From Elusimicrobiota bacterium (GTDB lineage Bacteria > Elusimicrobiota > Elusimicrobia > UBA1565 > UBA9628): DNA of 64,000 nt. The DNA lies in NCBI GenBank assembly GCA_016218545.1, contig JACRDQ010000030.1, positions 256,172 to 320,171 of the forward strand. Direction: 5' to 3'. Of the stretch, positions 5,098 to 26,316 are shown in pieces (positions within the stretch are counted from its first letter, which is position 1; each line of letters opens with the position of its first letter). The notes beneath the pieces were generated by a model, which worked only from the letters and a program-made list of their open reading frames with translations, made no database searches and was not told the origin of the DNA. Both the position numbers and the translations under genes were made by a program.

Positions 5098-5157
5098 CTC
5101 CCCTTCGCCAGCGGGATCCTGACGCCCTGCCCCGCGCTCCCGGGTCCCGCGGCCGGA

Positions 5158-6405: not shown

Positions 6406-6602
6406 GGTCCCTCCCGGTCCTCCGCGCCCCAAGACTACCATGATTGGCCGACGGAATCAACCTCGCGCGGGGCCCTGCCCGGGGCGGTTAGGTAGAACTA
6501 CGGAGTGCCCCTTGGGGCTGCCACGGATTGTGTCCCGGCCGGGGGTTGGGGTACCATGAAGTACCGCCCGGCTCCTCGACACGGCCGGGCAGGAGGACCT
6601 CG

Positions 6603-7295: not shown

Positions 7296-7314
7296 CGGTC
7301 GGGCCCCCCCGCCG

Positions 7315-8064
7315 ATGAGTTATAATGGAAGGGTGACCCCTGGCAAGGCCGACACGAGCGGGCAGGAGGGGATCCGCTATAAGATCCTGACGGTGGATGA
7401 CGACGCCGAGTGCCTCTCCATGCTGCGGGTCTGCCTGAGCCGAGCCGGCCACACGGTGCTGGCCGCGCGCTCCGCCCGCGAAGCCCTGCTGGCCGCTGTG
7501 GACTCCGGTCCGGACCTCGTCATCTCGGACGTCCAGATGGCGGGCGATGACGGCTTCGAGCTCTCGCGCCGCCTCAAGGCCGGCCCCGCGACCGCGCGCA
7601 TCCCCATCATCCTCCTGTCCGGCGCCAGCAAGGATGTCCGGGACCAGCTCGAGGGCTTCGGCCTCGGGGTCGACGACTATCTGATCAAGCCTTTCGAGCC
7701 GGCCCTCCTCCTGGCCAAGGTCCACGCGGTCCTGCGGCGCTACGCCGTCGCCGAGGAGCTGCGGGACGTGGTGAAGTCCAGGGGCGTGGAGCTCGACGTG
7801 CAGGCGCGCACCGTGTCCTGCTCGGGGTCCCCGGTCGCGCTCAGCCGCAAGGAGTTCGACCTGCTCATCACCCTCATCCGCAAGCGGGGCCATGTCTTGA
7901 GCCCGTCGTTCCTCCTGGAATCGGTCTGGAGCCAGGACCTCGCGGAATACAACGATCCGCGCACGGTGAAGGTCCACATCTCGTCCCTGCGAAAGAAGCT
8001 GCCGCCCGCCGTGGCGCGGCGCATCATGACCGTGCCCGGCTCCGGCTACCGCTTCGACGCCTAG
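7315..8064 (+). CDS. OmpR/PhoB-family response regulator (REC + winged-helix)
   Basis: REC domain: ILTVDDDAE...DLVISDVQMAGDDGFEL...PIILLSG...DDYLIKPF. Winged helix: LSRKEFDLLITLIRKRGHVLS...RTVKVHISSLRKKL...GYRF. The true start may be GTG 7333. Confidence 0.9.
   Translation: MSYNGRVTPGKADTSGQEGIRYKILTVDDDAECLSMLRVCLSRAGHTVLAARSAREALLAAVDSGPDLVISDVQMAGDDGFELSRRLKAGPATARIPIILLSGASKDVRDQLEGFGLGVDDYLIKPFEPALLLAKVHAVLRRYAVAEELRDVVKSRGVELDVQARTVSCSGSPVALSRKEFDLLITLIRKRGHVLSPSFLLESVWSQDLAEYNDPRTVKVHISSLRKKLPPAVARRIMTVPGSGYRFDA
7321..7326 (+). promoter_or_regulatory. Candidate -10 box (TATAAT) 6 nt upstream of in-frame GTG 7333
   Basis: A perfect TATAAT lies inside the first codons of track ORF 7315..8064. 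If it is functional, the regulator starts leaderless at GTG 7333. Confidence 0.3.
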
Positions 8065-8170
8065 GCGCCGGCGGGCTTCTGCCGTCGACCGCGTCCCTGG
8101 CTTGACCTTTTTTTTACCGCCATCCGGCACACTATGATTGGGGACGGCGGACGTCGCGCCGTACGATGCC

Positions 8171-10285
8171 ATGGAAGAAGACAAGAACAAGAAACTGGCC
8201 TTACGCATCGCCTCGTTGTTGGACGACGTCTCGGAAACGCCGGAGCCCCGGGGCTCCGGCGCTCCGAGCCAGCCGGTCATCTCGCTGAGACCCGCCGTGG
8301 TGGAGGCCCTCCCCGCGGGCGCGGATCTCGGCTCTCCCGCGGTCCAGGCCCCTTCCGAGGTCCTGGCCTCGCCCGAGGTCGGGTCCGCTGTGATGGATAT
8401 CCTGCCCATCTGGGCTGACCCCGACTTTCCTGCGGAGCAGGCCGTGCCCGCGCCGGCCGAAGGGGCCGCGGCCAGCGCGGCCCCCAAGAGGTCCGTGCTG
8501 GTGGTCGACGATGACCGGGACTACCGGCGGATGGTCCGGGCCCTGCTTTCCGGCAACGGCTATGACGTCTACGAGGCCGAGGATGGGCGCCGGGCTCTGC
8601 AGTTGATCGCGCTGCACCGTCCGGACCTGGTGCTCGTGGACTTCAACATGCCGCGGATGAACGGCTACGAGATGATCCAGGAGGTGCGGAGCCGGTTCGA
8701 GACCCGCGCCATTCCGATCATCATGTTCACCGGCGCTTCCAACCGGAGCCACCTGCGGAGCCTGGGCATGGCTATCTCGGATTTCCTGGAGAAGCCGGTG
8801 TCCAATGTCAGGCTGCTGGAGAGCATCTCCAGCGTGCTCGGCGCGGAGCCGTCTCCCGAGCTCATGGGAGCGGAGTCCGCCCCGTCTCCCCGGATCGTTG
8901 CGCCGCCGAAGGCTCCGGAGACGACGCCGTCCCCGAAAGTCGTCGCAGCCGAAACCATGGCTGAGAAGCCTCCGGCGGCGCCGGCGGAGCCCGCTCCGAC
9001 GGGCCTGCCGCCGGAGCCGCTCGAAGAAGGGGACGAGGACGGGACCGAGCTCCTGCAGATCGAGGAGGAGAAGAAGGAGGAGGAGAGGCAGGAGGTCATC
9101 AGCCTCGAGCACCAGGCCAATGAGTCCCCGGTCATCAGCCAGGTGAACCGCATCCTCGTCAAGGCCGTGGGGATGCGCGCCTCCGACATCCACATCGAGC
9201 CTCAGGAGAAGCACATCACGGTCCGCGTGAGGGTCGACGGCACTCTCAAGCTCCTGTGCACCCTGCCCCTCTCCATCCATCCCCGCCTGAGCGCCCGCAT
9301 CAAGATCATGTCCAGCCTGGTCATCACGGAGAGACGCCTTCCCCAGGACGGGCAGTTCAAGACCCAGATCAGGGGCAGCCGGGTCGAGTTCCGGGTGAGC
9401 ACGCTCCCGTGCCTGCACGGCGAGAAGATCGTCATGCGCATCTTGGGCACCAGCAAGCTCAACGCCGATCTGGCCCAGATGAGCCTCCGTCCCCGCGACC
9501 TGGGCTGCGTGGAGAGGGCGCTCAGGACCCCTCACGGCCTCATCCTCGTGACCGGCCCCACCGGGAGCGGCAAGACCACCACCCTCTACACCATGATCAG
9601 CGTCCTCAACAAGCCCGAAGTCAACATCCTGACCGCCGAGGACCCCGTGGAGTACGAGGTGCCGGACATCTCGCAGGTCAAGGTCCTGCCGTCCATCGGC
9701 CTGACCTTCGAGTCCGCTCTGCGGGCCTTCCTGAGGCAGGACCCGGACATCATGCTCATCGGCGAGATCCGCGACCTGGAGACGGCCAACATCGCGGTCA
9801 AGGCCTCTATCACCGGACACCTGGTCTTCTCCACCCTGCATACCAACGGCGCCGTCGCCACCGTGACGAGGCTCGTCCACATGGGGGTGGCGCCCTATCT
9901 CGTCGCGGCCAGCGTCAAGCTCGTGGCGGCCCAGCGCCTGGTCCGGGACCTCTGCCCGTCCTGCAAGGTCCCCGGCGAGGTCTCCGACGACGAGAAGAAG
10001 TTCCTCGCGGAGGAGGAGGTCGCCAGGCTCCGATCCGTCTGGCGGAGCGCGGGGTGTCCCGCCTGCCATCAGACGGGGTACTCGGGGCGCTCGGCCCTCT
10101 TCGAGATCATGCCCCTGGACTCGGCGGCCATGCGCCAGCTCATCTGCGCCGGAGACAAGGCGGAGGAGCTCAACCGTCTGGCCCTTGCGGAGGGCATGAC
10201 CACCCTGCGGCAAGCCGCCTTGGAGGCGGTGGCGCGGGGCACGACCTCGTTGAGCGAGGCGCTCAAGGTCATGCTGGGGGGATGA
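8171..10285 (+). CDS. Response-regulator receiver domain fused to a GspE/PilB-type secretion/pilus ATPase
   Basis: REC domain (VLVVDDDRDYRRMV...DLVLVDFNMPRMNG...PIIMFTG), then a Pro/Glu-rich linker, then the ATPase core. Core motifs: ASDIHIEP, RRLPQDGQF, Walker A GPTGSGKTTT, DPDIMLIGEIRD, TGHLVFSTLHTN, and the tetracysteine CPSC...CPAC. The canonical T2SSE N-domain is absent. Start uncertain: ATG 8171 or TTG 8138. Confidence 0.85.
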   Translation: MEEDKNKKLALRIASLLDDVSETPEPRGSGAPSQPVISLRPAVVEALPAGADLGSPAVQAPSEVLASPEVGSAVMDILPIWADPDFPAEQAVPAPAEGAAASAAPKRSVLVVDDDRDYRRMVRALLSGNGYDVYEAEDGRRALQLIALHRPDLVLVDFNMPRMNGYEMIQEVRSRFETRAIPIIMFTGASNRSHLRSLGMAISDFLEKPVSNVRLLESISSVLGAEPSPELMGAESAPSPRIVAPPKAPETTPSPKVVAAETMAEKPPAAPAEPAPTGLPPEPLEEGDEDGTELLQIEEEKKEEERQEVISLEHQANESPVISQVNRILVKAVGMRASDIHIEPQEKHITVRVRVDGTLKLLCTLPLSIHPRLSARIKIMSSLVITERRLPQDGQFKTQIRGSRVEFRVSTLPCLHGEKIVMRILGTSKLNADLAQMSLRPRDLGCVERALRTPHGLILVTGPTGSGKTTTLYTMISVLNKPEVNILTAEDPVEYEVPDISQVKVLPSIGLTFESALRAFLRQDPDIMLIGEIRDLETANIAVKASITGHLVFSTLHTNGAVATVTRLVHMGVAPYLVAASVKLVAAQRLVRDLCPSCKVPGEVSDDEKKFLAEEEVARLRSVWRSAGCPACHQTGYSGRSALFEIMPLDSAAMRQLICAGDKAEELNRLALAEGMTTLRQAALEAVARGTTSLSEALKVMLGG

Positions 10286-10286
10286 T

Positions 10287-11048
10287 ATGCCCGGCATGCC
10301 GTTGGTCGAGGCCTTTCGGGGCGACCTCACGACCCAGGAGCTCTGTCGTCGGGGACGCCTCAAGCTCAGGCGTTTCGATCCTCCCGGCTACGCGGAGGCC
10401 GTCGCCTTCTTCTCGGACGCGCGGGAAGGCGATCCGGAGTGCGCGGTCTCCGTGGCCGCCCTGGCCGAAGCCTACTCGCACTGGGGTTTCGCGAGGAAGC
10501 TCATAGGGCAGGAGAGCGAGAGCTATTTCCTCCTGGCTTTCGAGAACGCCTGCTTGGCGCTGGAGATGGCCCCTGAACTCGCCGAGACGCACCGGGCCAT
10601 GGCCGTCTGCCTGAGGCACCGGCCGCGCCGCGGCCCCGAGCAGGGACTCGCCGAGGCGTCGGCAGCGGTGAGGATCAACCCTTACGACGCCATGTCCTGC
10701 TACGAGCTCTGGCGGGCGATGGGCCATGACCCCGAGTCACCCATGATCCACAAGGCCCTGGCGCTCGATCCCGCGCTGCTGACCGTCAACAATGACCTGG
10801 CGGTGTCGCTCATGGAAGCGGAGCGCGCCCAAGAGGCCGGCTTCCATCTGCGCCAGTGCCTGCGGGTCAATTACGAGAACGCGGTGGCCCGATACAACAT
10901 GGTCCTGCTCCTCGCCTGCCGCGGCAAGACCGAGCAGGCGCAGACCCTGCTCGAGGCCTGGCTGAAGGGGCCCGATTTCGAGCCGCTGGTGCGCAGCGGG
11001 AACGCGTCGCTGGCTGACCCGCGCTCCACGGGGGGGATCCTCTTATGA
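10287..11048 (+). CDS. TPR-like helical-repeat protein
   Basis: Helical-repeat composition (AEAVAFFSDAREGDPECAVSVAALAEAY...NAVARYNMVLLLACRGKTEQAQTLLEAWL). It starts 1 nt after the upstream stop and overlaps the downstream start (ATGA). Confidence 0.5.
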   Translation: MPGMPLVEAFRGDLTTQELCRRGRLKLRRFDPPGYAEAVAFFSDAREGDPECAVSVAALAEAYSHWGFARKLIGQESESYFLLAFENACLALEMAPELAETHRAMAVCLRHRPRRGPEQGLAEASAAVRINPYDAMSCYELWRAMGHDPESPMIHKALALDPALLTVNNDLAVSLMEAERAQEAGFHLRQCLRVNYENAVARYNMVLLLACRGKTEQAQTLLEAWLKGPDFEPLVRSGNASLADPRSTGGILL

Positions 11049-13216
11049 ATCGCTTCCAATCTCCGAGCCAAGATGCCGGGGGCAAGACGCCCGATCAACT
11101 CGGCGCAGAGTTCGTCCTCGAGTTGGGAAGGGCCGTCAAGGTCGTGTCCCTGTACTACGCGAACCACCCGACCGCCCTTCAGACCCTCCGGCAAGTCCAC
11201 GCCATCCTGGAGCGGCTGTTGACCGGCCTTTCCGCGGGGCGCGTCACCTTCTCCCTGGCGGCCGGACGCTGGCTCAGGGATGGTTCCCCCCTGCCTGCCC
11301 CGGGTCCGGGCGCGGACTCCCTGCTCGGCGTGTTCGAGACCCACTCCATCGAGAGCCTCACCTTCCTGGGAGGCATCAGGCCCTTCGAGCTGGTCGCTCT
11401 GGCCGAGGTCGCGGCTTCCGTCCCGACGCGTCCGGGCCGCGCCGCGCTCCAGGAGTTCCTCCAGCAGAGAGGAGTGACCCACATCAAAGCGGACATCGAG
11501 CACTATTCCAAGGAGTCGGCTCCGCAGGGCTCGGACGGTTCCCTGGCGTCCGGCTTGCCGGCCGCCTCCTCGTCCGCTGCCAAGCCCCCTGTCGCGCCTT
11601 CCGTTCTCAGGCCTGCCGCGCCTGCGCCCGCTGGCAAGCCTTCAGCGCCTGCGTCCGCTGCCAAGCCCTCCGCGCCTGCGCCCGCTGGCAAGCCTTCGTC
11701 GCCTGCGCCCGCTGCCAAGCCCTCCGCGCCTGCGCCCGCTGGCAAGCCTTCGTCGCCTGCGCCCGCTGCCAAGCCCTCCGCGCCTGCGTCTGCTGCCAAG
11801 CTTGCCGCGCCGTCGCCTTCGGTCGCTCACAGCGTCCCGGCGCAGCCTCCCAAGCCGGCTCTCCCGCCCGTAGAGGTCCGTGCCTCCGCGGCCGGGATGT
11901 GGGGCCCGCCGTCGAGCCCTGCTCCCGACTCTCACGGGGACAGGCTTGGCGTCAGTTTCGGCAGCGTGCTTCGCAAGCTCGTGGAGACCGCGGTGCAGGA
12001 TCCCGACGAGAGGTCCCACATCTACGAGGACGTGGTGGCCATGGTCAAGGAGACCTTGGACCGCCACGTCGACCAGGCGACGCAGGCGCTCTCGGAGGAG
12101 AAGGCGCGCATCGTCAGGCAGGCCGCCAGGACCGAACGGGTGCTCACCACGGTGGCGGACGGAAAGTTCACCGTGGATAAAGAGGGAAGGGTCCTCATGA
12201 TGAACGCCAGCGCCGAGATGATCACGGGAAAGCGTCTGGCCGACCTCGCGGGCAAGCACATCACCGAGGGCGTCAAGGAGGGGGAGCACATGGTCGCGCT
12301 CGCCGAGGACCTGGCGTCCCCGGCCGTGGACGGAGCAGGGGTCACGGTCGTGGCCGATGAGGCGGTGGGCGGCGCCATGCGCCGCTCCCTGGCCCTGGTC
12401 CGAGACGACGCGGGCCGCGTGGTCGGCACGTACGCCTCCCTCCCCGACGCCGCCAAGTTCAAGGAAGCCCAGCGCCTGCAGGAGGAGTTCCTCTCCCGGG
12501 TGACGCACGACCTCCAGTCCCCGCTGGCCGCCATCTGCAGCGGACTCGAGCTCCTCGCGGACAAGGTCAGCTCCGTGGGCGGTCCCGAGACGGCCCAGTA
12601 CATCGACATCTGCATGCGCAACAGCCGTCACCTCTCGGGGATGATCCGCGAGATCCTCGATTTCTCGAAGCTCGACTCGGGCAAGATGACGGTGCACCCG
12701 GCCCCTGTCTCGGCCTCAAGCCTCCTCAAGGAGGCGGTGGAGAGCCTCCAGCCCTGGGCCAAGACCAGGAAGCTCCGCCTGGAAGCGCGTTCTGCCCACG
12801 CGGATTTCTCGGTGCTGGCGGACCAGCCGCGCGTCGTCCAGGTGCTGACCAACCTCATCTCGAACGCGGTCAAGTCCACAAAGGAAGGGGGCTCGATCAC
12901 CGTGGCGGCGGTCCCGGCAGCGGAGGACGGGCAGGGGATCTTCGCGGTGAAGGACACGGGGAGCGGGATCTCCCCTGAGGACCTCGGCCGCATCTTCGAG
13001 AAGTTCGTCCAGGTCGGGGACGGCCGCAGGGACGGGGTGGGACTCGGGCTTTCCATCGTCCAGGAGTTCGTCCGATTGCACGGCGGCGCGGTCTGGGCCG
13101 AGAGCGAGCCCGGCAAGGGTTCGGTGTTCTACTTCACGCTCCCCTTGTCGCAAGCCGGAGTCATCGGCCCCGCGGCGCAGGAGGTCCTGCCGCCTTCGGG
13201 GCGGCCCCGGCACTGA
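11045..13216 (+). CDS. Sensor histidine kinase (cytoplasmic; N-terminal helical domain, PAPAxKPS repeat linker, PAS-like, HisKA, HATPase_c)
   Basis: H-box FLSRVTHDLQSPLAAI, N-box LISNAVKST, G-boxes KDTGSGISPEDL and GVGLGLSIV. No obvious TM segments. Confidence 0.85.
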   Translation: MNRFQSPSQDAGGKTPDQLGAEFVLELGRAVKVVSLYYANHPTALQTLRQVHAILERLLTGLSAGRVTFSLAAGRWLRDGSPLPAPGPGADSLLGVFETHSIESLTFLGGIRPFELVALAEVAASVPTRPGRAALQEFLQQRGVTHIKADIEHYSKESAPQGSDGSLASGLPAASSSAAKPPVAPSVLRPAAPAPAGKPSAPASAAKPSAPAPAGKPSSPAPAAKPSAPAPAGKPSSPAPAAKPSAPASAAKLAAPSPSVAHSVPAQPPKPALPPVEVRASAAGMWGPPSSPAPDSHGDRLGVSFGSVLRKLVETAVQDPDERSHIYEDVVAMVKETLDRHVDQATQALSEEKARIVRQAARTERVLTTVADGKFTVDKEGRVLMMNASAEMITGKRLADLAGKHITEGVKEGEHMVALAEDLASPAVDGAGVTVVADEAVGGAMRRSLALVRDDAGRVVGTYASLPDAAKFKEAQRLQEEFLSRVTHDLQSPLAAICSGLELLADKVSSVGGPETAQYIDICMRNSRHLSGMIREILDFSKLDSGKMTVHPAPVSASSLLKEAVESLQPWAKTRKLRLEARSAHADFSVLADQPRVVQVLTNLISNAVKSTKEGGSITVAAVPAAEDGQGIFAVKDTGSGISPEDLGRIFEKFVQVGDGRRDGVGLGLSIVQEFVRLHGGAVWAESEPGKGSVFYFTLPLSQAGVIGPAAQEVLPPSGRPRH
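11617..11805 (+). repeat. In-frame 27-nt tandem repeat x7 encoding (A/S)PA(P/S)A(G/A)KPS
   Basis: Read directly from the sequence: gcgcctgcgcccgctggcaagccttc(a/g)... alternating with gcgcctgcg(t/c)c(c/t)gctgccaagccctcc. It encodes APAPAGKPS/APASAAKPS/APAPAGKPS/SPAPAAKPS/APAPAGKPS/SPAPAAKPS/APASAAKLA. Confidence 0.85.
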
Positions 13217-14021: not shown

Positions 14022-15177
14022 ACTTCCGCTGGTTGTAGTCCGCCCGCGTCACCGTGATGAACCTCTTGGTGGTGTCGCCCTTGTGGTCGAAGACGATCGT
14101 CCCCATCATGCTCTCGTGGCGGATCTCCCTGAGGACGTCGAGGAGCGGCTTGCGGCGCTCGAGCGAGACGGCCAGGGCCGAGACGACCAGGCGTCCCGCC
14201 TCGTAGGCGTAGTGGTCGAAGGTCCTCGGCCCGGCGCCGCCCTCGGGGCGCTCCCGCCGGTAGCGCTCGACGAAGTCCCCGGCGCTGGGCAGGTGCTCCA
14301 CCGGGATGCCGCCCACCGTGAAGTACGCTCCGTGGACCGCGGGGCCGGCGATCTTGAAGATCTCGGGGGCCTTGGCGCCGTCGCCGGTCATGAAGGCTGC
14401 GGTCATGCCCTGGCCGCGCGCCTCCTTGACGATGCGCCCGGCCTCGTTGTAGTCCCCGCCGAAGAAGATGCCGTCCGGCTTGAACCGGGAGGCCCACTCG
14501 ACGACTTCCCTGAAATCCGCGGCGCCCTTGGCCACGGCCTCGGCCGCCACCACGCGGCCTCCCTTCTCCGTGAAGCGCTTGGAGAACTCCTCGGACAGGC
14601 CGCGGCCGTAGGCGGTGCCGTCGTGGAGGACCGCGAAGGCCCTGAGGTTGAGGCGGTCGTAGGCGAACTCCGCGGTGAAGGAGCCCTGGATGTCGTCGGC
14701 AGGCGGCAGGCGGAAGACCACGCGGGGCCAGGACCAGTCCGGCTTGGTCTGCTGGACCGTGAGTTCCGGGTTCGTGGCCGAGGGGGTGATCATGGGGATC
14801 CCGGCCTTGGCGTAGACGCGGGAGGCGGCCAAAGAGCAGCCCGAGGTGAGGTGGCCCACCACGGCCTTGACCTTCGGGTCGGCGGCGATGCGCTCCGCCA
14901 CCCGCACGGCCTCCTCGGGCCGGGCCTGGTCGTCGAAGGCGCTGACCTCGATGCGGGTGGGGGGGAACTCGATGGGCTTGGCCTCGGCTGCGGCCATGCG
15001 CACCGCGGCCAGGAGGCCCTCGCCGTCGGCCGCCAATGGGCCGCTCAGGGGTGCTGCCACCGCGATGCGGACCGTCTTGGGCTCCCCGCCGCCGCAGGCC
15101 GCCAGCAGGGCCGCGAGCGCCAGGGCCTTGGCCCAGGCTGGCTGCGGCCGGCCGGCGGGGCGGGGGGGAGGCTTCAT
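13957..15177 (-). CDS. ABC-transporter substrate-binding lipoprotein, Leu/Ile/Val-binding (type I PBP) family
   Basis: Lipoprotein signal with lipobox (LAALLAACGGG). RIAVAAPLSGPLAADGEG, VVGHLTSG and FFGGDY are typical of LivK-like binding proteins. Its start overlaps the upstream stop (ATGA). Confidence 0.8.
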   Translation of the reverse strand: MKPPPRPAGRPQPAWAKALALAALLAACGGGEPKTVRIAVAAPLSGPLAADGEGLLAAVRMAAAEAKPIEFPPTRIEVSAFDDQARPEEAVRVAERIAADPKVKAVVGHLTSGCSLAASRVYAKAGIPMITPSATNPELTVQQTKPDWSWPRVVFRLPPADDIQGSFTAEFAYDRLNLRAFAVLHDGTAYGRGLSEEFSKRFTEKGGRVVAAEAVAKGAADFREVVEWASRFKPDGIFFGGDYNEAGRIVKEARGQGMTAAFMTGDGAKAPEIFKIAGPAVHGAYFTVGGIPVEHLPSAGDFVERYRRERPEGGAGPRTFDHYAYEAGRLVVSALAVSLERRKPLLDVLREIRHESMMGTIVFDHKGDTTKRFITVTRADYNQRKFKSTDPAEASWAAESAAPGSP

Positions 15178-15707
15178 CCCCTCAGGTAGAACCTCAGGTT
15201 CTCGACGAGGTCCACGGCCTTGCCGAGCTGGTACTGGCAGGACTCGAGCTCCTTGGCCAGCGAGTCCTCGGGGAGGCTCGCGCGCGCCTCCTCGGCCAGG
15301 AGTTTCAGCGAGGCCCCGGCGTTGACGAGGAGGCTCTTGAGCTCCCGGGTCATGACCGAGGCCGTCTGGTTGGCCGACTCCTCGCGCCGGGTCTGGTCGA
15401 GCGCGGTGTCGAAGGCCGTCTTCTGGGCCTGGGCCGCGGTCTCCTCGACCTCGGAGACCTTCATCCTGGAGGCGATGAGCGCGGCGTGCTCGCGCTCGAG
15501 GTCCCGGCGGACCTCGACGAGCTGGCTCTCGCAGCGCGCGACCTTGGCCCGGAGCTTGCCGATGAGCGCCTCGCGCTGGCGGATCGGGTCGAGGAGCTTG
15601 CGGATGCGCTCGACCGGGCCGCGGAGCGACTGGGGCAGGCGGCTGGAGAGCTCCTTGAGCGCGGCGTCGGCCCTCTCGAGCGCGGCCTGGCTGAACGCCA
15701 TGTTCAT
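15174..15707 (-). CDS. Coiled-coil hypothetical protein
   Basis: Heptad-rich, Glu/Arg/Leu-rich sequence (MNMAFSQAALERADAALKELSS...). A CATAAT box directly abuts ATG 15707, so the second ATG (15701) may be a leaderless start. Confidence 0.55.
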   Translation of the reverse strand: MNMAFSQAALERADAALKELSSRLPQSLRGPVERIRKLLDPIRQREALIGKLRAKVARCESQLVEVRRDLEREHAALIASRMKVSEVEETAAQAQKTAFDTALDQTRREESANQTASVMTRELKSLLVNAGASLKLLAEEARASLPEDSLAKELESCQYQLGKAVDLVENLRFYLRG

Positions 15708-15839
15708 ATTATGGCAAAAATACCCGGGAAAATGGGGAAAAGCCCGCCGGGTCGGGAAAAACATGATTTCCGTCATTTGAATTAAACGTCCCAAACGGAT
15801 AAAATATGTTTTGCCCTTGAGTTCTTCCGGGGCCTTCCA

Positions 15840-16805
15840 GTGCCGACCCGAACGCAGACGACGACCAGCCTCGAGGCTTCCCTGGGACGGGTGCGCGCAG
15901 GCATGCAAGCCCGCGCCAAGCGCATCTCCGGCCGCGTGGGCTCCGCCCTGGCCGAGCACGTGTCCCGGCCGGGCAAGATGCTCCGGGCGAGGTTCGCGGT
16001 CCAGGTCGGGGCCGCCCTCGGGGTGGCGCCGGGAAAGACCGAGACGGTCGCCCGCGCCATGGAGCTGGCGCACAACGCCTCTCTCCTCCACGACGATTGC
16101 GTCGACGACGCCTCCCTGCGTCGGGGCCTGCCCACGCCCAACAGCGTCTACGGCTCGACCGTGGCGCTCCTCCTGGGGGACATCGCCTTCACCCAGTCGC
16201 TCGAGGAGGCGCTCGAACTCGGCCCCAAGGCCGTGGAGCGCCTCGTGAGCGCGGCGCGCGAGATGGCCATCGGCGAGCTCCAGGAGGAGTTCCTGCGCGG
16301 CTCCGTGGACGTGACCCTCGAGTCCTACATGGGGGTCGCGGCGCGCAAGACCGGGGCCCTCTTCGAGTGGGGCGGCTTGACGCTCTCGGACCTAAGCCCC
16401 CTCGAGCACGCGGCCGCCGACCCCGCCAGGCTGGGCTCGGCGCTCGGCATCCTCCTGCAGATGGTCGACGACATCCACGACTACACCCTGACGGACGCCG
16501 TGGCCGGCAAGGAGCGGGCCAAGGACGCCAAGATCGGGCGCGTGACCCTTCCCGGGGTCTTTGCGCTCGCGGACGCCTCCCGCCGGGGGCGCTTCCTCGA
16601 GTTGTGGGCCGCGCTGCGCCGGGACCCGCGCGCCGCCTCGGACCTGGCGCGCTTCCTCGACGAGAGCGGGTCGCTCGACGAGGCCCGCGCCGAGTGCCGC
16701 AAGGTGGTCGGGACCATCCTCGAGCTGACCCGGCGCCTGCCGGTCCGGGGAGAGGTCGACGAGGTGGCCGAGTTCGTCTCGGCCATGGCCGAGAGGGAAT
16801 TCTGA
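15840..16805 (+). CDS. Long-chain trans-polyprenyl diphosphate synthase (IspB-like)
   Basis: First Asp-rich motif LLHDDCVDD...RRG and second motif QMVDDIHDY. The distances of RPGKMLRA and DDxxD from GTG 15840 match full-length IspB-type enzymes. Confidence 0.85.
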   Translation: MPTRTQTTTSLEASLGRVRAGMQARAKRISGRVGSALAEHVSRPGKMLRARFAVQVGAALGVAPGKTETVARAMELAHNASLLHDDCVDDASLRRGLPTPNSVYGSTVALLLGDIAFTQSLEEALELGPKAVERLVSAAREMAIGELQEEFLRGSVDVTLESYMGVAARKTGALFEWGGLTLSDLSPLEHAAADPARLGSALGILLQMVDDIHDYTLTDAVAGKERAKDAKIGRVTLPGVFALADASRRGRFLELWAALRRDPRAASDLARFLDESGSLDEARAECRKVVGTILELTRRLPVRGEVDEVAEFVSAMAEREF

Positions 16806-17254
16806 TGGGCTACGCCGACCTCATCCGGCGGGCCTGGCGGACCGGGCGCTTCGCCGCCTCGGTCCGGTCGTCCGGGAAGAAGGGCGCCGCGGGCGTCCGT
16901 CCCGGGGAGAGCCGCGGCTCCATCCGCGGCGAGATGGAAGAGATCGTCCGCCGCGAGTCCGCCGACGCGCTCGGCTTCCTCGCGCCGCGCGGGGAGGGAA
17001 TCATGAAGCTCGCACCGTTCGTGAAATTCCGTGAAGAGAAGTTCGGCGCGGTCCTGTTCGAGACCCGTTCCGAGAAGGTGTTCACCCTCAATCCGACGGC
17101 CGCGGACGTGGTGCGGGAGCTCCTCGCCGGCGCCTCGGAGGGCGAGATCGGAGAGCGCCTCAAGGGCCGCTACAGCGACCCCTCGGGCAGGCTCGCCGAC
17201 GAGGCCAAGGCCCTCGTGCGCCAGCTCCGCGACAAGGGGCTCATCGCGGACTAG
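16805..17254 (+). CDS. PqqD/MftB-like peptide-binding chaperone (RRE domain) with ~66-aa N-terminal extension
   Basis: The C-terminal 83 aa (MKLAPFVKFREEKFGAVLFETRSEKVFTLNPTAADVVRELLAG..EGEIGERLKGRY..........ALVRQLRDKGLI) fit the PqqD pattern. The upstream 66 codons have very high GC3, and ATG 16805 overlaps the ispB-like stop (ATGA). ATG 17004 is the alternative start. Confidence 0.7.
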   Translation: MGYADLIRRAWRTGRFAASVRSSGKKGAAGVRPGESRGSIRGEMEEIVRRESADALGFLAPRGEGIMKLAPFVKFREEKFGAVLFETRSEKVFTLNPTAADVVRELLAGASEGEIGERLKGRYSDPSGRLADEAKALVRQLRDKGLIAD

Positions 17255-17255
17255 C

Positions 17256-18254
17256 ATGGCTTCGAGGAAGGACGCGGTCAAGGCCGGAGGCCGGGCGTCC
17301 CGGGCGCCCTTGGAAGAGGCGTTGGCGCCCGGGATGCGGGCGCCGCTCTACATCGGCTGGCAGCTGACCAATGCCTGCGACCTGGCGTGCGTCCACTGCA
17401 TCGAGGAGTCCGGGCCGGGCCGCGCCTTCAAGGACGAGCTGACCCGGGAGCAGGCCTTCCGTATCCTCGAGCAGATCAAGACCGAGCAGGTGCCCTACGT
17501 CGCCTTCTCCGGGGGCGAGCCCTTCCTCCACCCGCACTTCCTGGAACTGGCCGCGTTCCTCGGAGACGCCGGGGTGTCGCTCAAGGTCGAGACCAACGGC
17601 CGCCACCTCACCGAGGCGGCCGCCTCGGCGCTGCGGGACCACGGAGTCCGGGCCGTGCAGGTCAGCCTCGACGGCGCCACCCCCGAGGCCTACCGCAAGG
17701 TGCGGCCCTCCGGCGACCACGCCCGGGTCCTGGCAGGCATCCGCCTCCTGCGCTCCAGGGGCGTGGAGGTGGAGGTCAACTTCGTCCCGACGCGGCACAA
17801 CGTCCATGAGATCGGAGCCGCCGTGGACCTGGCCTTCAGCGAGGGGGTCTCCGGCTTCTACACGGGCAGGCTCATCCTGGCCGGCCACGCCGCCAAGGCG
17901 CGGGACCTGGCCCCGACCCAGGAGCAGTACGACGCCTTCTTCGCGTGCCTCAAGGCCAAGGCCCAGGAGTACAAGGGCCGCATGACCGTGCGCTATCACG
18001 AGCTGGGCATCGCGCAGGAGGTCCGCTACCGCATGGCCAACCCCGCGGCCCTCTTCGTCATCCTGCCCGACGGCAGGGTGAAGCTCCTCAACGCCCTGCC
18101 GTTCGTGTGCGGCGACCTGCGCGAGCAGAGCCTCACCGAGGTCTGGAAGGCCTTCCTCGCGGGCTGGAAGTCGCCGCGGGTGGCCGACTTCGTCGGCCGC
18201 CTGGAGGCCGACCCCGGGCTCCTGCAAGGACTGCACCGATGGATCCCTTTGTGA
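17256..18254 (+). CDS. Radical SAM enzyme A, PqqE/MftC-like, degenerate (Cys-less) SPASM-like C-terminus
   Basis: CxxxCxxC cluster motif in WQLTNACDLACVHCIEESGPG, SAM-binding FSGGEP, and KVETNG. C-terminal remnant ILPDGRVKLLNALPFVCGDLREQSLTEVW. Only 2 Cys lie outside the cluster motif. Confidence 0.8.
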   Translation: MASRKDAVKAGGRASRAPLEEALAPGMRAPLYIGWQLTNACDLACVHCIEESGPGRAFKDELTREQAFRILEQIKTEQVPYVAFSGGEPFLHPHFLELAAFLGDAGVSLKVETNGRHLTEAAASALRDHGVRAVQVSLDGATPEAYRKVRPSGDHARVLAGIRLLRSRGVEVEVNFVPTRHNVHEIGAAVDLAFSEGVSGFYTGRLILAGHAAKARDLAPTQEQYDAFFACLKAKAQEYKGRMTVRYHELGIAQEVRYRMANPAALFVILPDGRVKLLNALPFVCGDLREQSLTEVWKAFLAGWKSPRVADFVGRLEADPGLLQGLHRWIPL

Positions 18255-19198
18255 CCGAGTCCGGCGTGGAGACCGACGGCCGCGCCGCTCCGGCCCGCGG
18301 CGGCGGGAGCGGGCGGCCGAATCTGGCCCTGCGGATGGCGTCTGCGGTGCGCTACCGCTTCTTCCTGTACGCGGGACTCCTCCCGTACTTCCTCGGCGCG
18401 GCCTGGGCCCTGCGCATGGAGGGAGCCTTCGCGCCCGGCCGCTTCTGGCTGGGCCTGCTGGGCATCGGCCTGTCCGTCGTGGGTGTTGAGTCCTTCAACG
18501 AGTACTTCGACGCGCGCATGGGCACGGACCGCGTCTTCAACCCTTCCGACGACGAGTACATCCCCGCCTGGATGCTCTGGCTGGGGGTCGCGGCGTTCGC
18601 GGCCGCGGCGTGCGTGGGCATGGCCCTGGCCCATGCCGGAGGCTGGCCCATCCTCCTCTACATGGGGCTGGGCGGCATGGCCGCGGCCTTCTACGTGGGC
18701 CCGCCTTTCCGCTGGGCCTACCTGGGCCTCGGCGAGACCTCGATCGCCTTGTCCTACGGGCCCTGGATGACCCTGGGCAGCATCCACCTGCACACGGGCG
18801 CTTTCTCCTGGCGCGGCCTGGCGGCCGCGCTCGTGCCCGGCTTGCTGGTGGCGTCGCTCGCCGTGGTCAACGAGATCCCGGATTTCCACCAGGACCGGCT
18901 CGTGGGCAAGCGCAACCTCGTGGTGCGGCTGGGCCGCAGGAACGGGGTCGCCCTGTACCTCGCCCTGGCCGGGGCGGGCTTGGCCGCGTGCTTCGCAGGC
19001 GCGGCCGCGGGCTGGTTCCCGGTCGCGTGCGGCCTGGCCGGGGCCCTGGGCCTGCCGTGCTGGTTCTCGAGCGCTCGGACCGCGGTCAAGGCGTGGGACA
19101 CGCCGCGGCTTTTCGTGCCCGCGGTGCGGGACATCGTGCAGTGCTATCTCGTGACCGTGAGCGCCTTCATCATGGCGCTCGCCGTGAGGCTGCCGTGA
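18239..19198 (+). CDS. UbiA-superfamily aromatic prenyltransferase, MenA-like
   Basis: Polytopic membrane protein. First motif NEYFDARMGTD (NxxxDxxxGxD) and second motif NEIPDFHQDRLVGKRNLVVRLG (NxxxDxxxDxxxGKxxLxVRLG) have the same spacing as in MenA. ATG 18239 overlaps rSAM A by 16 nt. Confidence 0.75.
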   Translation: MDPFVTESGVETDGRAAPARGGGSGRPNLALRMASAVRYRFFLYAGLLPYFLGAAWALRMEGAFAPGRFWLGLLGIGLSVVGVESFNEYFDARMGTDRVFNPSDDEYIPAWMLWLGVAAFAAAACVGMALAHAGGWPILLYMGLGGMAAAFYVGPPFRWAYLGLGETSIALSYGPWMTLGSIHLHTGAFSWRGLAAALVPGLLVASLAVVNEIPDFHQDRLVGKRNLVVRLGRRNGVALYLALAGAGLAACFAGAAAGWFPVACGLAGALGLPCWFSSARTAVKAWDTPRLFVPAVRDIVQCYLVTVSAFIMALAVRLP

Positions 19199-20109
19199 GG
19201 ATCGCGTCCTTCGACGTTCCCCTGGCCGCTGCCTGGCGCCTGACCGACCGGTGCGACCTCTCCTGCCGGCACTGCCTCAACGCTTCCGGGCCCAAGGCTG
19301 ACACGGCCGCCGAGCTCTCCCGGCCCGAGGCTCTCAAGCTGGCCCGGAGCATCGGCTCAGCCCAGGTCCCCTACGTCATCCTCTGCGGGGGCGAGCCCAT
19401 GCTGAGCCCCGACTTCTGGCAGGCGGCCGAGACCCTGGGCGAGGCAGGCGCGTGGCTCAAGGTGGAGACGCACGGCCAGAACCTCGGGCGCACCCAGGCG
19501 GAGCGCCTGGCCAAGCTCCCCATCCGCTCGGTCCAGGTCTCTCTCGACGGGGTCACCCAGCAGGCTTACGAGTCCCTGCGGCCAGGGGCCTCCCTGGCCA
19601 AGACCTTGGAAGCTTGCCGCGAGGTGCGGCGTCAAGGCATGCCCCTCGAGATCTCCTTCGTCCCGGTCCAGGGCAACATCCACGAGGCTCCGGCGGTCAT
19701 CGACCTGGCCCTGGACCTGGGCGCCTTCCGGTTCAACACCGGGACCCTCATCAAGCGCGGCCGCGCCGCAGCCGCTTGGAAGAAGCTCCTTCCTGATGCC
19801 GAGTCCATGGCAGGCTTGCTCGCGGTCCTCACCCGTCGCGAAGCCACCCTGGCCGGGAGGCTCGAGCTCTGCTTCAGGCCTTTCAATTTCGAAGACCAGG
19901 TCCGCGCCGAACGCGCGGAGCCCTCAGGCACGCTCACGATCCTGCCTGACGGCAAGGTCCCTGTCTCGGCCTCCTCGGACGTCGTCTGCGCCGACCTTCG
20001 GACGCAGACGGTCAGGGAGGCCTGGCGCGCTTACTTGGCGGCGCACGGCAAGGGGCCACGATCGGAAAGATGGGTCGGCTCGTGTCTTGAGCCGGCTACC
20101 CGGTCCTAG
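19195..20109 (+). CDS. Radical SAM enzyme B, paralog of A and C
   Basis: WRLTDRCDLSCRHCLNASGP, CGGEP, KVETHG, ILPDGKVPV...VVCADLRTQTVREAW. GTG 19195 overlaps the prenyltransferase stop (GTGA). Confidence 0.75.
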   Translation: MRIASFDVPLAAAWRLTDRCDLSCRHCLNASGPKADTAAELSRPEALKLARSIGSAQVPYVILCGGEPMLSPDFWQAAETLGEAGAWLKVETHGQNLGRTQAERLAKLPIRSVQVSLDGVTQQAYESLRPGASLAKTLEACREVRRQGMPLEISFVPVQGNIHEAPAVIDLALDLGAFRFNTGTLIKRGRAAAAWKKLLPDAESMAGLLAVLTRREATLAGRLELCFRPFNFEDQVRAERAEPSGTLTILPDGKVPVSASSDVVCADLRTQTVREAWRAYLAAHGKGPRSERWVGSCLEPATRS

Positions 20110-20129
20110 GCCGGGATTTAGGAGACAGC

Positions 20130-20255
20130 ATGAGAGACAAGAAGAACGTGACGGATGGAAAGGCGAAGGCCGACAAGAAGCCCGTGTGGCAGACCCCTTC
20201 TCTCGAAGAGGTCACCGAGCGTGTCATGGCCCAGCCGTACATCAGGTTCACGTGA
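20130..20255 (+). CDS. 41-aa candidate precursor peptide, PqqA/MftA-like (MRDKKNVTDGKAKADKKPVWQTPSLEEVTERVMAQPYIRFT)
   Basis: Not in the ORF track because it is too short. A GGAGA Shine-Dalgarno lies 4 nt upstream of ATG 20130. About 82% GC3. Stop TGA 20253-20255 overlaps the GTG start of rSAM C (GTGA). It sits between rSAM genes and downstream of a PqqD-like gene. The W-x2-P-x3-E-V...Y-I-x3 spacing matches PqqA as I recall it. Confidence 0.6.
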   Translation: MRDKKNVTDGKAKADKKPVWQTPSLEEVTERVMAQPYIRFT

Positions 20256-21226
20256 CGCACCCGAGGGGGGCGGCGGTAGGAGACTACCGCGCCCCCCTCT
20301 TTGTCGCGTGGCAACTCACCAACCGCTGCCGCGGCCGCTGCCTGGCCTGCTGCGAGGAATCCGGTCCGGGCAAGGGAATCCGCCAAGGCGGGTCCTGGCA
20401 GGCTGAGCTCACCAAGCAGGAAGCCCTCCGCGTCAGCCGCGACATCGCGGCCTCCGGGGTCTCCTACGTGGCGTTCGGCGGGGGGGAACCCATGGAGGTG
20501 CCGCACTTCTGGGACATCCTCTCCATCCTCTCCAAGGGCGGGGTCCGCATCAAGATCGAGACCAACGGCGGGACCATCGGCCGCTCCCAGGCCAAGCGCC
20601 TCTCCGCCTTGGGCGTGTCCTCCATCCAGATCAGCCTCGACGGCCCCACGGCCCGCGAGCACGAGGCCTTGAGGCCCGGCTCGAGCTTCAACAAAGCGGT
20701 CCGGGCGGTCCGCTGTCTGGCTGAGGAAGGGCTCGGGCCTGAGGTCGTGTTCATCCCCATGAAGAGGAACGTGGGCCAGGCCGTCAAGGTCTACCGATTG
20801 GCGGCCAGTCTCGGAGCCAGGGTGCTTGCGACCGGCCCTCTCATGCGCCTGGGACGCGCCGGAGCAGCATGGAAGGAACTCGCCCCGTCGGCCGGGCGAT
20901 GGCGGACCGCGGTCCGGGCGCTCAAGGCCGAGGCCGCCCGTGCCAAGGCAGGGCCCAAGCTCTCCATCTATCCCTGGGGCATCCAGAGGGAGATCGAGAC
21001 CAGGCTCGAGCATCCCCAGGCCATGGTCCTCGTGGTGCCTGACGGCAAGGTCAAGCTCCTCAATGCCCTCCCTTTTGCTCCAGGCGACCTGCGGCGACAC
21101 TCCCTGGCCCAGGCCTGGACGCGCTGCCTCGGAGCTTGGCGCGACCCCAAGGTGCGGGCTTTCTGCCGCAAGGCCGTGAAGGACCCCGGGCTCCTGGCGC
21201 ACGCCAACGAATGCTGGCCCGCCTAA
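20252..21226 (+). CDS. Radical SAM enzyme C, paralog of A and B
   Basis: WQLTNRCRGRCLACCEESGPG, FGGGEP, KIETNG, VVPDGKVKLLNALPFAPGDLRRHSLAQAW. There is no in-frame ATG upstream of the motif, so the start is placed at GTG 20252. Confidence 0.75.
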   Translation: MTHPRGAAVGDYRAPLFVAWQLTNRCRGRCLACCEESGPGKGIRQGGSWQAELTKQEALRVSRDIAASGVSYVAFGGGEPMEVPHFWDILSILSKGGVRIKIETNGGTIGRSQAKRLSALGVSSIQISLDGPTAREHEALRPGSSFNKAVRAVRCLAEEGLGPEVVFIPMKRNVGQAVKVYRLAASLGARVLATGPLMRLGRAGAAWKELAPSAGRWRTAVRALKAEAARAKAGPKLSIYPWGIQREIETRLEHPQAMVLVVPDGKVKLLNALPFAPGDLRRHSLAQAWTRCLGAWRDPKVRAFCRKAVKDPGLLAHANECWPA

Positions 21227-22286
21227 TCCAAGCAGGCTGAGAAGAGCGCGGGGAGCTCGCCGAGCCTGCCCGCCTCGGCGAGCTTGCCCAGGTCGAAGAG
21301 GATGAGGCCTCCGGAGCCTCCCTGCCAGGCGGCGTCGGCGGCGGCCCTGAGCTCGCCGGGTCCGAGGGGATGCTCCGCGTCTCCCACGAAGATGATGGGC
21401 CAGACCGGCTTGCCCGAATCGGCCTTGACGGCCATGGAGGCGTCCGTGATCCAGGACGCGGGCCTGCGCAGGAGCGCGTGGTACGCCATGGGCGAGACCA
21501 CGTCCGCTGCCCTGCCCATGAGGCGGTGGTCCTGGCCGAGGATCTCGAGGACGGCCCCGCGCTTCTCCGAGCGCTCCCAGGGCACGGCGAAGTAGCCCAC
21601 CAGGGCCGCGGGGTCGGCCGCGTGGACCGCGTCTGCGACCTCGCTGACGAGGCCCGCGATGCTCGCGGTCTTGAACGCGGTCCAGCGCTCCTTGTGGTCC
21701 GACAGGATCCAGCGCGCCTTCTCCCTGGCCGTGAGCTCCTCCGGGACCGCGACCCCGGTTTCCTTGCGGAACTCCCTCAGGCACACCGGGCAGAAGCAGG
21801 TCTGCTCGAGATGGGGCTCGGGGACCTCCCAGTGGCCGGGATAGCGGATGAAGTCGAGCCACACGCCGTCGACTTCCTGCTTGCGCACCAGGGACACGGC
21901 GCGCTTCTTGATGTCCAGCCTGAGCCAAGTCTGGTTGGGGCAGACGGCGGCGTACCACTTGACCTTGGCGAGGGGTTCGCCGACCTCGCTGACCGGCCTG
22001 CTCTCGGGCCGCGTCTTCCAATGACGCTCTCCCGCGAAGGCTGTGAGCTCCGCGAACACGCGGATGCCACGGCCGCGCAGGGCCTTGCGGAGGAGCGGGT
22101 CCTTGTAGCCGCCGAAGACCGCGTTCACGCCCCAGGAGGAGAGGGCCTCGGCGATCCGCTCCGGGGTCTTGCCCTTGAAGGCCGCGGACTTGGGGTCGAA
22201 GCCGTAGACCCCGCACACCGGTCCGGCGTCAGCGGCAAGAGCGGGCTGGACCGCGAGGATGAGGCCGGCGAGGATGAGGAGGAGCA

Positions 22287-22287
<1 letters not shown>
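21223..22287 (-). CDS. Secreted glycoside-hydrolase-like TIM-barrel protein (GHL-type family), hypothetical
   Basis: Short signal peptide (LLLILAGLILAVQPALA), DGVWLDFIRYPGHWE and a CFCPVC motif. It is the C-terminal third of track ORF 21223..23874. Start placed at GTG 22287, next to the purH stop. Confidence 0.5.

Positions 22288-26316
<4,029 letters not shown>

Follow-up and report, generated by a model that had tools for sequence, protein, structure and literature searches.

To our knowledge, pyrroloquinoline quinone (PQQ) and mycofactocin are the only known redox cofactors derived from peptides, and neither of them bears a lipid. Their precursors, PqqA and MftA, share an architecture in which a variable N-terminus is followed by a conserved stretch of the last ~23 residues with a fixed C-terminus (Haft, PMC3023750). 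Here we describe a 41-codon open reading frame (ORF) in a 64,000-nucleotide stretch of DNA from an Elusimicrobiota bacterium (assembly GCA_016218545.1, contig JACRDQ010000030.1; the whole stretch is called the window below), which the original prediction took for a third precursor of the PqqA/MftA type. The ORF does encode a precursor-type peptide accompanied by a PqqD-family chaperone and MftC-like radical S-adenosylmethionine enzymes (rSAMs), but it falls outside the PqqA and MftA family models. Beyond that prediction, the peptide has an obligatory MenA-like prenyltransferase partner, a polyprenyl diphosphate synthase is encoded in the same operon, the family is spread over several phyla, and it is linked to respiratory genes.

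The sequence comparisons suggest, at what we judge to be an even chance, that the peptide is the precursor of an rSAM-modified, polyprenylated, membrane-bound cofactor that is derived from a peptide and tied to quinone-dependent respiration. We favor a prenylated, rSAM-modified peptide because of the tight partnership of the genes across phyla, the invariant core of the peptide, the lack of export, immunity and conserved protease genes in the cassettes inspected, and the respiratory neighborhoods in which the cassette is found.

The peptide gene and its relation to PqqA and MftA

The ORF, whose translation is MRDKKNVTDGKAKADKKPVWQTPSLEEVTERVMAQPYIRFT, is not annotated in the source record, and a protein search found the identical sequence only in a Logan assembly. 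The original prediction had described its frame, its Shine-Dalgarno (SD) sequence, a GC content at third codon positions (GC3) of about 82% and the overlap of its stop codon with the next start, and all of these held up: the SD reads AGGAGA, the peptide stop overlaps the GTG at 20252 (as GTGA) that starts the gene of the third rSAM (rSAM3), and the GC content at the three codon positions is 0.51, 0.39 and 0.83, a GC3 pattern that is the coding signature of a genome of ~70% GC. Twelve homologues from protein databases have a variable N-terminus and an invariant C-terminus, and a scan that took one genome per species found the peptide in 96 genomes, nearly all of them labelled as Elusimicrobia or Elusimicrobiota metagenome-assembled genomes (MAGs). 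Residues 32-41 (VMAQPYIRFT) are constant across 66 distinct nucleotide versions of the gene, in which four codons are used at each of V32, A34, P36 and T41, four of the possible six at R39, and two at each of Q35, Y37 and I38. In these versions, the overlap of the peptide stop with the downstream start is conserved as ACGTGA or CCTGATG. The core that is unchanged despite synonymous variation, the GC3 signature, and the conserved SD and stop/start coupling together show that the ORF is a real gene under strong purifying selection at the protein level.

An apparent restriction of the family to Elusimicrobia proved to be an artefact of the two motifs used in the genome scan (RVMAQPYI and W[QE][TK]P[VSC][LI]EEV) and was removed by the homologues of rSAM3 and by a profile search. 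The former, with 55-57% identity, are found in Betaproteobacteria, including the complete genome of GR16-43 (CP019169.1), Usitatibacter-labelled MAGs and a Burkholderiales MAG, and the betaproteobacterial peptides end in ...WETPKMEDVSEEVMAQPYIRFT and ...WETPRLEDVSEQVMAQPYIRFT. The profile search, run against 1.84 billion cluster representatives, returned 97 clusters at 50% identity with E<=1e-3, of which ~93 are peptides of 30-140 amino acids (most of them 30-78), and nearly all of these end in [VI]MAQP[YF]IRFT; one lysine-rich family member is labelled Planctomycetota. At least 600 stretches encoding AQPYIRFT were found in a metagenome scan. One and the same core is shared by Elusimicrobia, Betaproteobacteria and Planctomycetota, and the GC content of the measured loci ranges from 37 to 71%. 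The residues invariant throughout the family are W20, P23, A34, Q35, P36 and I38-R39-F40-T41; thus, among the key residues whose conservation the original prediction had proposed to check, W20 and P23 are fixed, whereas M33 and Y37 vary. An orphan second copy of the peptide (…WETPVIDEVTDRVMAQPYIRFT) is present in the Elusimicrobia MAG STD1_166 (L078, 906-1004) with no PqqD, rSAM or UbiA match nearby; the same MAG also holds a cassette copy of the peptide (L035).

The resemblance to PqqA that had been noted for the peptide is real in the leader but does not extend to the core or to the curated PqqA models. The Klebsiella PqqA sequence used in the original comparison is correct (100% match to a gene annotated as pqqA). 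From the Trp to the C-terminus, members of the peptide family and eight real PqqA sequences alike count 22 residues, and the register agrees in the Pro at W+3, the acidic residue at W+7 and the Tyr at W+17, four residues before the C-terminus; the Ile after the Tyr, which had been counted as a further match, is not fixed, this residue being I, F or V in the eight PqqA sequences. In a profile-profile alignment (hhalign) of 45 diverse members of the family with PqqA, the leader, xWxKPxΦxDΦ, aligns (P=5.3e-5, probability 67%) but the core does not; with 13 Elusimicrobia-type sequences only, the match is weak (P=0.0087, probability 4.6%). A W-anchored ungapped shuffle test against the eight PqqA sequences gave P values of 5e-5 to 5e-3, which are only suggestive, the anchor having been picked after the match was seen. 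The PqqA models (Pfam PF08042, NCBIfam TIGR02107) do not match the window peptide at E<=1, and one of the 45 diverse members matches TIGR02107 at E=0.035. The Glu-x3-Tyr pair, which is cross-linked by PqqE and kept in all eight PqqA sequences, is absent from the window peptide, where Met33 occupies the position of the Glu; as for co-encoded pqqB-E, PqqD is present and the rSAMs score 54-86 bits against a PqqE cut-off of 381.

Kinship to MftA by sequence, which had also been proposed, was not borne out: the MftA model (NCBIfam TIGR03969) matches neither the window peptide nor any of the 45 diverse members, and MftA ends in Gly-Val-Tyr, with the Tyr last, whereas the peptide here ends in YIRFT with the Tyr four residues from the end. 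A tblastn search against plasmids found no match to the putative MftA tail on which that comparison was based. What the peptide shares with MftA is architecture and not sequence, i.e., a variable N-terminus, a conserved stretch of ~22-23 C-terminal residues and a fixed end. Alignment to the curated PqqA and MftA families gave no match above cut-off, membership in either family was rejected on this ground, and a Pfam and NCBIfam scan of the window peptide and the 45 diverse members found no model that passed its cut-off.

At the level of the whole system, the likeness to PQQ biosynthesis consists in a short peptide with a conserved part of ~22-23 residues and an invariant core, as expected of a cofactor precursor, and in a separate PqqD chaperone and a PqqE-like rSAM fold; it differs in that there is no PqqB or PqqC here, the rSAMs are without the SPASM cysteines, and a MenA-like prenyltransferase is obligatory. 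As in mycofactocin biosynthesis, MftC is the best family for the rSAMs and MftB is among the matches of the PqqD protein, and the prenyltransferase may be analogous to the glycosyltransferase MftF that decorates mycofactocin; in contrast to that system, MftD, MftE and MftF are absent here and the rSAMs are of ~320 amino acids without SPASM clusters. A second pqqA-E-D cluster of Hyphomicrobium (PMC12423496) is a different system.

The leader also resembles those of lasso peptides, since the leader part of the paeninodin lasso model finds weak matches in 14 of the 45 diverse members. For this reason W-x-x-P-x-L is best read as the general (W/Y)xxPxL motif recognized by PqqD-type recognition elements (RREs) for peptides that are ribosomally made and then modified post-translationally (RiPPs). 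The likeness to lasso leaders and their PqqD-like RREs (B1 proteins) does not go beyond chaperone recognition: neither a lasso cyclase nor a leader protease is present here, and radical SAM enzymes serve as the maturases. The short ORF near an RRE and a maturase, the leader motif and the conserved core are all found as in precursors of the PqqD/RRE-dependent RiPP class.

The operon and its enzymes

The peptide gene is the sixth of the seven genes of a compact operon (15840-21226; Table 1) with intergenic distances of -16 to +20 nt. The ATG of the PqqD gene overlaps the synthase stop as TGATG, the UbiA gene overlaps that of rSAM1 by 16 nt, and the GTG start of rSAM2 overlaps the UbiA stop. None of the operon's proteins in the window reaches an NCBIfam equivalog cut-off.

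Table 1. Features of the peptide operon in the window (positions are those of the 64,000-nucleotide stretch)
Feature	Position	Strand	Basis and remarks
Sigma-70-like promoter match	15777-15805	+	Sole promoter-like site in 15000-22500 (1 against 0.2 expected); consensus match only
trans-Polyprenyl diphosphate synthase, 321 amino acids	15840-16805	+	Pfam PF00348, 139 bits
PqqD-family peptide chaperone (RRE), 149 amino acids	16805-17254	+	Pfam PF05402, 43.7 bits
rSAM1, MftC/PqqE-like, without SPASM cysteine set	17256-18254	+	Pfam PF04055, 92 bits
UbiA-superfamily prenyltransferase, MenA-like, 319 amino acids	18239-19198	+	Pfam PF01040, 56.6 bits (gathering score 34.2)
rSAM2	19195-20109	+	Pfam PF04055, 70.7 bits
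Shine-Dalgarno AGGAGA	20120-20125	+	4 nt 5' of the peptide ATG; read from sequence
Precursor peptide ORF, 41 codons	20130-20255	+	ATG at 20130, TGA at 20253-20255; read from sequence
Peptide: leader, residues 1-19		+	Variable
Peptide: predicted RRE-recognition motif, W20-V28	20187-20213	+	
Peptide: core, V32-T41	20223-20252	+	
rSAM3, translationally coupled to the peptide gene	20252-21226	+	Pfam PF04055, 76.5 bits; MftC model, E=4e-31

The best NCBIfam matches of the first protein are solanesyl-, heptaprenyl- and octaprenyl-diphosphate synthases. It shares both DDxxD motifs (DDCxD and DDxxD) with 58 orthologues; the first of these Asp-rich motifs is preceded by small residues (A, S), in HNASLLHDDC, from which established chain-length rules suggest a long-chain product. 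The PqqD-family protein, in which the PF05402 match covers residues 87-152 of the translated stretch 16790-17254, has the lasso PqqD chaperone as its best NCBIfam match, followed by MftB. A conserved N-terminal extension of ~65 amino acids (Y..L....W..G; 16805-17000 in the window, and orthologues) distinguishes the PqqD proteins of Elusimicrobia from those of Betaproteobacteria and of the minimal (type II) cassettes described below, which are 83-101 amino acids long and lack it.

All of the rSAMs score best against MftC among characterized families in NCBIfam, the MftC match of rSAM1 (E=4e-37) staying under the cut-off of the model. The CX3CX2C motif is invariant in 64 of 64 orthologues of rSAM1, together with one further Cys; it is kept in 71-72 of 72 orthologues of rSAM2, where 3-4 further Cys are mostly conserved; and in rSAM3 it is part of an invariant CX3CX2CC (CX3CX2C in 68 of 68). 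A model of rSAM3 made with AlphaFold2 (predicted local distance difference test score, pLDDT, 86) has as its closest folds in the PDB SkfB (6efn, E=4e-16), PqqE (6c8v, 1e-13) and SuiB (5v1q, 1e-12), so that the rSAMs agree with RiPP maturases in the CX3CX2C motif and, as far as the rSAM3 model goes, in the overall fold. The seven-cysteine SPASM motif, including CX2CX5CX3C, is absent from rSAM1-3, which have 1-4 further conserved Cys per paralogue; the Pfam SPASM model matches weakly in rSAM1 only (E=0.036), and all three proteins retain a hairpin remnant, PxGxVKLLNALPF. Two other roles of the rSAMs were considered: a haem/sirohaem-type role, suggested by secondary matches to AhbD and NirJ, was rejected on account of the invariable presence of PqqD and the peptide, and a futalosine-type role was rejected because no MqnC/MqnE-type family is among the best matches listed.

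The best NCBIfam match of the UbiA protein is 1,4-dihydroxy-2-naphthoate (DHNA) polyprenyltransferase (E=3.5e-29, under the cut-off). Its two Asp-rich motifs, FNEYxDxxxGTD and NxIPDxxQDRLVGK (e.g., NEYFDARMGTD and IPDFHQD), are conserved in 67 orthologues. The likeness of this part of the operon to MenA/UbiA and IspB-type enzymes thus comprises the MenA-type Asp-rich motifs, the co-encoded long-chain-type synthase and the quinone-dependent neighbors described below. The difference is that the protein lies far under the MenA equivalog cut-offs, with 102 bits against the best MenA model (cut-off 264) and 63 bits against TIGR00751 (cut-off 102): the PF01040 match and the two motifs place it in the UbiA superfamily, but not among the MenA equivalogs with their DHNA acceptor.

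Cassette architectures and respiratory neighborhoods

The gene order of the window recurs in ~60 Elusimicrobia loci or species, the enzymes of which are only 45-60% identical. Two architectures can be distinguished, type I being [synthase] PqqD-rSAM-UbiA-rSAM-peptide-rSAM and type II being peptide-PqqD-rSAM-UbiA [synthase]; the betaproteobacterial cassettes have the order PqqD-rSAM-UbiA-rSAM-peptide-rSAM without a synthase gene. Common to both architectures in all phyla sampled are the peptide, PqqD, at least one rSAM and UbiA, and of the 72 peptide copies whose flanking DNA was long enough, 70 are accompanied on their own strand by a PqqD and a UbiA gene at no more than 4.5 kb. The single rSAM of type II is 43% identical to rSAM1, 41% to rSAM3 and 38% to rSAM2, and these identities point to an origin of type I by triplication of the rSAM gene and to one rSAM being enough for the essential chemistry.

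The cassettes inspected contain no transporter or immunity gene, no protease conserved across them and no men, mqn or ubi head-group genes, and homologues of PqqB/C or MftD/E/F were found in none of the cassette contexts inspected. The ribosomal peptide is the only candidate source of a head group within the cassette. Clustering of flanking ORFs at the Elusimicrobia loci, which was noisy from antisense ORFs in GC-rich DNA, returned only MarR, aminotransferase and caspase-like neighbors, each in subsets of loci. A gene for a MarR-family regulator lies immediately 5' of the synthase in ~17 Elusimicrobia loci (e.g., L001, 5251-5766; L030, 2243-3709) and is absent from the window. Caspase-family (Peptidase_C14) genes lie 3' of rSAM3 in ~12 Elusimicrobia loci, one of them fused to ankyrin repeats; they follow rSAM3 directly on the same strand in L094 (10938-13468) and L015 (7108-8730), while in L001 (13682-14659) the gene is on the opposite strand, ~2.6 kb from rSAM3. 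Peptidase_C14 is thus a possible, though not universal, candidate for a processing protease.

The cassette is repeatedly found next to respiratory genes. In at least 12 distinct metagenome loci, a type II cassette lies in an nqr (NADH:quinone reductase) operon, between nqrE and nqrF or directly 3' of nqrF. At L097, NqrC and NqrD pass the NCBIfam equivalog cut-offs, which NqrB, NqrE and NqrF nearly reach, and at L098 the polyprenyl synthase gene overlaps the start of nqrA. The cassettes of the three betaproteobacterial genomes all adjoin genes for a quinol dehydrogenase of the NapC/NirT (CymA) type, an MtrB/PioB porin and a multihaem cytochrome resembling MtrA. A molybdopterin oxidoreductase and a cytochrome b subunit (Fdn-like modules) are further neighbors in GR16-43 and the Burkholderiales genome, and of this pair only the cytochrome b was seen at the Usitatibacter locus. 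The Nqr, CymA/Mtr and molybdopterin oxidoreductase/cytochrome b complexes all exchange electrons with membrane quinones.

Several further genes were seen at these loci. A MoxR-type AAA ATPase and a ~500-amino-acid protein flank the cassette in GR16-43 (L091, 1416-5751) and Usitatibacter (L092, 11432-15081), GR16-43 has a weak VWA (CoxE-like) match there in addition, and a Cu/Zn superoxide dismutase gene stands beside the cytochrome genes. At L130 (10001-11438), the genes before the peptide are NuoF/NuoG-like and Nqr-like, and the one after it, of 421 amino acids, looks HemN-like from its N-terminal sequence; the usual PqqD-rSAM-UbiA set is not downstream. The type II cassette of L109 has NuoA/NuoB-like genes divergently upstream (1-850) and, downstream (5075-12745), genes of the Hdr type (CCG-domain and HdrA-like), another UbiA-family gene and one for a polyprenyl synthase, all judged from N-terminal sequences.

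Elsewhere in the window, a long tandem repeat rich in Pro, Ala and Lys (…AAKPSAPAPAGKPSSPAP…) separates the N-terminal region of a histidine-kinase-like protein (11045-13216) from its sensor/kinase part, and a 715-amino-acid protein (8138-10285) appears from its translation to join a response-regulator receiver through a Pro-rich linker to a GspE/PilB-type secretion ATPase. On the minus strand, converging on the cassette end, lies the gene of a secreted protein that is only weakly similar to GHL6/DUF4015 putative glycosyl hydrolases (21223-22290); this gene is conserved 3' of the cassette in syntenic loci, together with purH and ligA.

The proposed pathway and its alternatives

The leader match, the MftC-like rSAMs and the modelled fold of rSAM3 argue that the peptide is a substrate of PqqD/RRE-dependent rSAMs. 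In the pathway that we propose, the leader motif W-x-x-P-x-(L/M)-E-(E/D)-V would be bound by the PqqD-family chaperone, which would present the core V-M-A-Q-P-Y-I-R-F-T, with its C-terminus free, to the short MftC/PqqE-like rSAMs, three paralogues in the window and presumably a sufficient one in the minimal cassettes. The rSAMs would carry out radical chemistry on the core, with the aromatic residue or the C-terminal IRFT as the most likely target. The MenA-like UbiA membrane prenyltransferase would then attach a polyprenyl chain, supplied here by the co-encoded long-chain-type synthase, either to the modified peptide or to a fragment cut from it; the acceptor may be the aromatic ring, the invariant C-terminal carboxylate (cf. 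esterification of the chlorophyll-synthase type) or a group created by the rSAMs. The product would be a membrane-anchored, peptide-derived cofactor or electron carrier working with quinone-dependent respiratory modules. The identity of the core in three phyla and the lack of transporter and immunity genes in the cassettes inspected suggest that it is cofactor-like rather than antibiotic-like. The same pattern was used by Haft to argue for mycofactocin (PMC3023750).

A number of observations weigh against this proposal. Every enzymatic step in it, from the modification of the peptide by the rSAMs and the action of UbiA on their product to the redox role, is inferred by guilt by association. 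In some clusters Thr, Ile or Leu takes the place of Met33, and in four related clusters that form a coherent sublineage (P0209, P0221, P0222 and P0224) Phe takes that of Tyr37 (…MAQPFIRFT); this variability appears to argue against phenol chemistry of the PQQ type and against simple prenylation of the Tyr. The rSAMs are without the cysteines of the SPASM auxiliary clusters that PqqE and MftC need, and their chemistry may differ from both. As no protease is conserved across the cassettes inspected, prenylation of the whole peptide and of a fragment are both possible, and we know of no UbiA-family enzyme that acts on a peptide. About half of the minimal cassettes are not adjacent to nqr, and no respiratory neighbors were seen at the inspected Elusimicrobia cassettes. 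Lastly, Betaproteobacteria should already make ubiquinone, and the product is thus not simply "the" quinone of these cells.

Three other explanations of the cassette deserve consideration. First, the cassette may make a lipidated natural product of the RiPP type, for instance a signal, an antibiotic or a surfactant-like polyprenyl peptide, without a role in electron transfer, the respiratory neighbors being coincidental. Prenylated peptides do exist: ComX is prenylated by ComQ, a homologue of polyprenyl synthases, and cyanobactins are prenylated as well. As in the ComX/ComQ system, a ribosomal peptide is encoded here beside an isoprenoid enzyme, and the Elusimicrobia cassettes are free-standing, some with the MarR regulator upstream. 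However, the candidate transferase here is a membrane UbiA protein and the synthase is dispensable, being absent from the betaproteobacterial cassettes; ComX varies between strains, whereas the core here, identical across three phyla and ~93 clusters, is unlike the variable cores of bioactive RiPPs. Neither an exporter nor an immunity gene nor a conserved leader protease was found in the cassettes inspected, and placement within nqr operons at 12 or more loci and beside CymA/Mtr genes in three genomes would have to be accidental. We therefore regard a lipidated natural product as unlikely.

Second, the modified peptide may belong to membrane respiratory complexes, Nqr for example, as a small dedicated subunit, or help to assemble them; it would then act as a protein, possibly one with a lipid anchor, and not as a diffusible cofactor. 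The position of the peptide gene between nqrE and nqrF would fit such a role, as would the peptide of L130, which has NqrA-F-like matches directly upstream and no PqqD-rSAM-UbiA set downstream, although the Nqr context of that locus is uncertain given that two of the upstream genes look NuoF/NuoG-like. On the other hand, Elusimicrobia and Betaproteobacteria have this same invariant peptide without nqr nearby, and an architecture of leader and core with a PqqD/rSAM partnership is typical of processed RiPPs, which leaves this explanation, too, with a low probability.

Third, the rSAMs alone might make a soluble cofactor similar to PQQ or mycofactocin, and the prenyltransferase and the synthase would then represent an unrelated quinone-biosynthesis module interleaved with their genes. 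This would agree with the PqqA-like leader, with the 22-residue length from the Trp to the end and the Tyr in register, with the presence of PqqD and MftC-like rSAMs, and with a core that is invariant as it is in PqqA and MftA. It is nevertheless improbable, because the linkage of the peptide to UbiA is no looser than that to PqqD (70 of 72 copies) and holds across phyla in either gene order, and the UbiA gene is interleaved among the rSAM genes with overlapping reading frames. Moreover, the contexts inspected hold no homologues of PqqB/C or MftD/E/F, the Glu of E-x3-Y is missing and the Tyr is replaceable by Phe.

Finally, although the ORF is short and unannotated in the source record and GC-rich genomes are rich in spurious ORFs, a chance untranslated open frame in a GC-rich spacer is refuted by the pattern of conservation, with amino acids invariant under synonymous variation, a conserved SD and translational coupling, and persistence across phyla at a GC content of 37 to 71%.

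The prenylated, rSAM-modified cofactor therefore remains the reading that we prefer. It is possible, although we put this more specific claim forward only tentatively, that it represents a third class of ribosomally derived redox cofactors after PQQ and mycofactocin and the first lipid-anchored one, with a head group made by as little as one rSAM and a polyprenyl tail added by a MenA-like enzyme, which would serve as a dedicated membrane electron carrier or bound cofactor of NADH:quinone reductases of the Nqr type and electron conduits of the CymA/Mtr type in several phyla. No description of the cassette or of the peptide was found in the full-text literature searched, which did not extend to subscription-only papers, so an earlier description may exist.

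With the cassette placed in nqr operons and next to CymA-MtrAB genes, its connection with respiration, and with extracellular or iron electron transfer, is concrete enough to be tested. GR16-43 (CP019169.1) is a complete genome record without a MAG label and Usitatibacter, a genus relative, has named species, so genetics and lipid mass spectrometry should be feasible, and the minimal cassette of four or five genes suits heterologous reconstitution. If the proposal is true, the cassette would contain the first UbiA-family prenyltransferase of a RiPP pathway and would define a subfamily of rSAMs that lost the SPASM clusters but keeps its PqqD partner, and in bacteria of at least three phyla a peptide encoded by a gene would be the source of an electron carrier or cofactor of the membrane.

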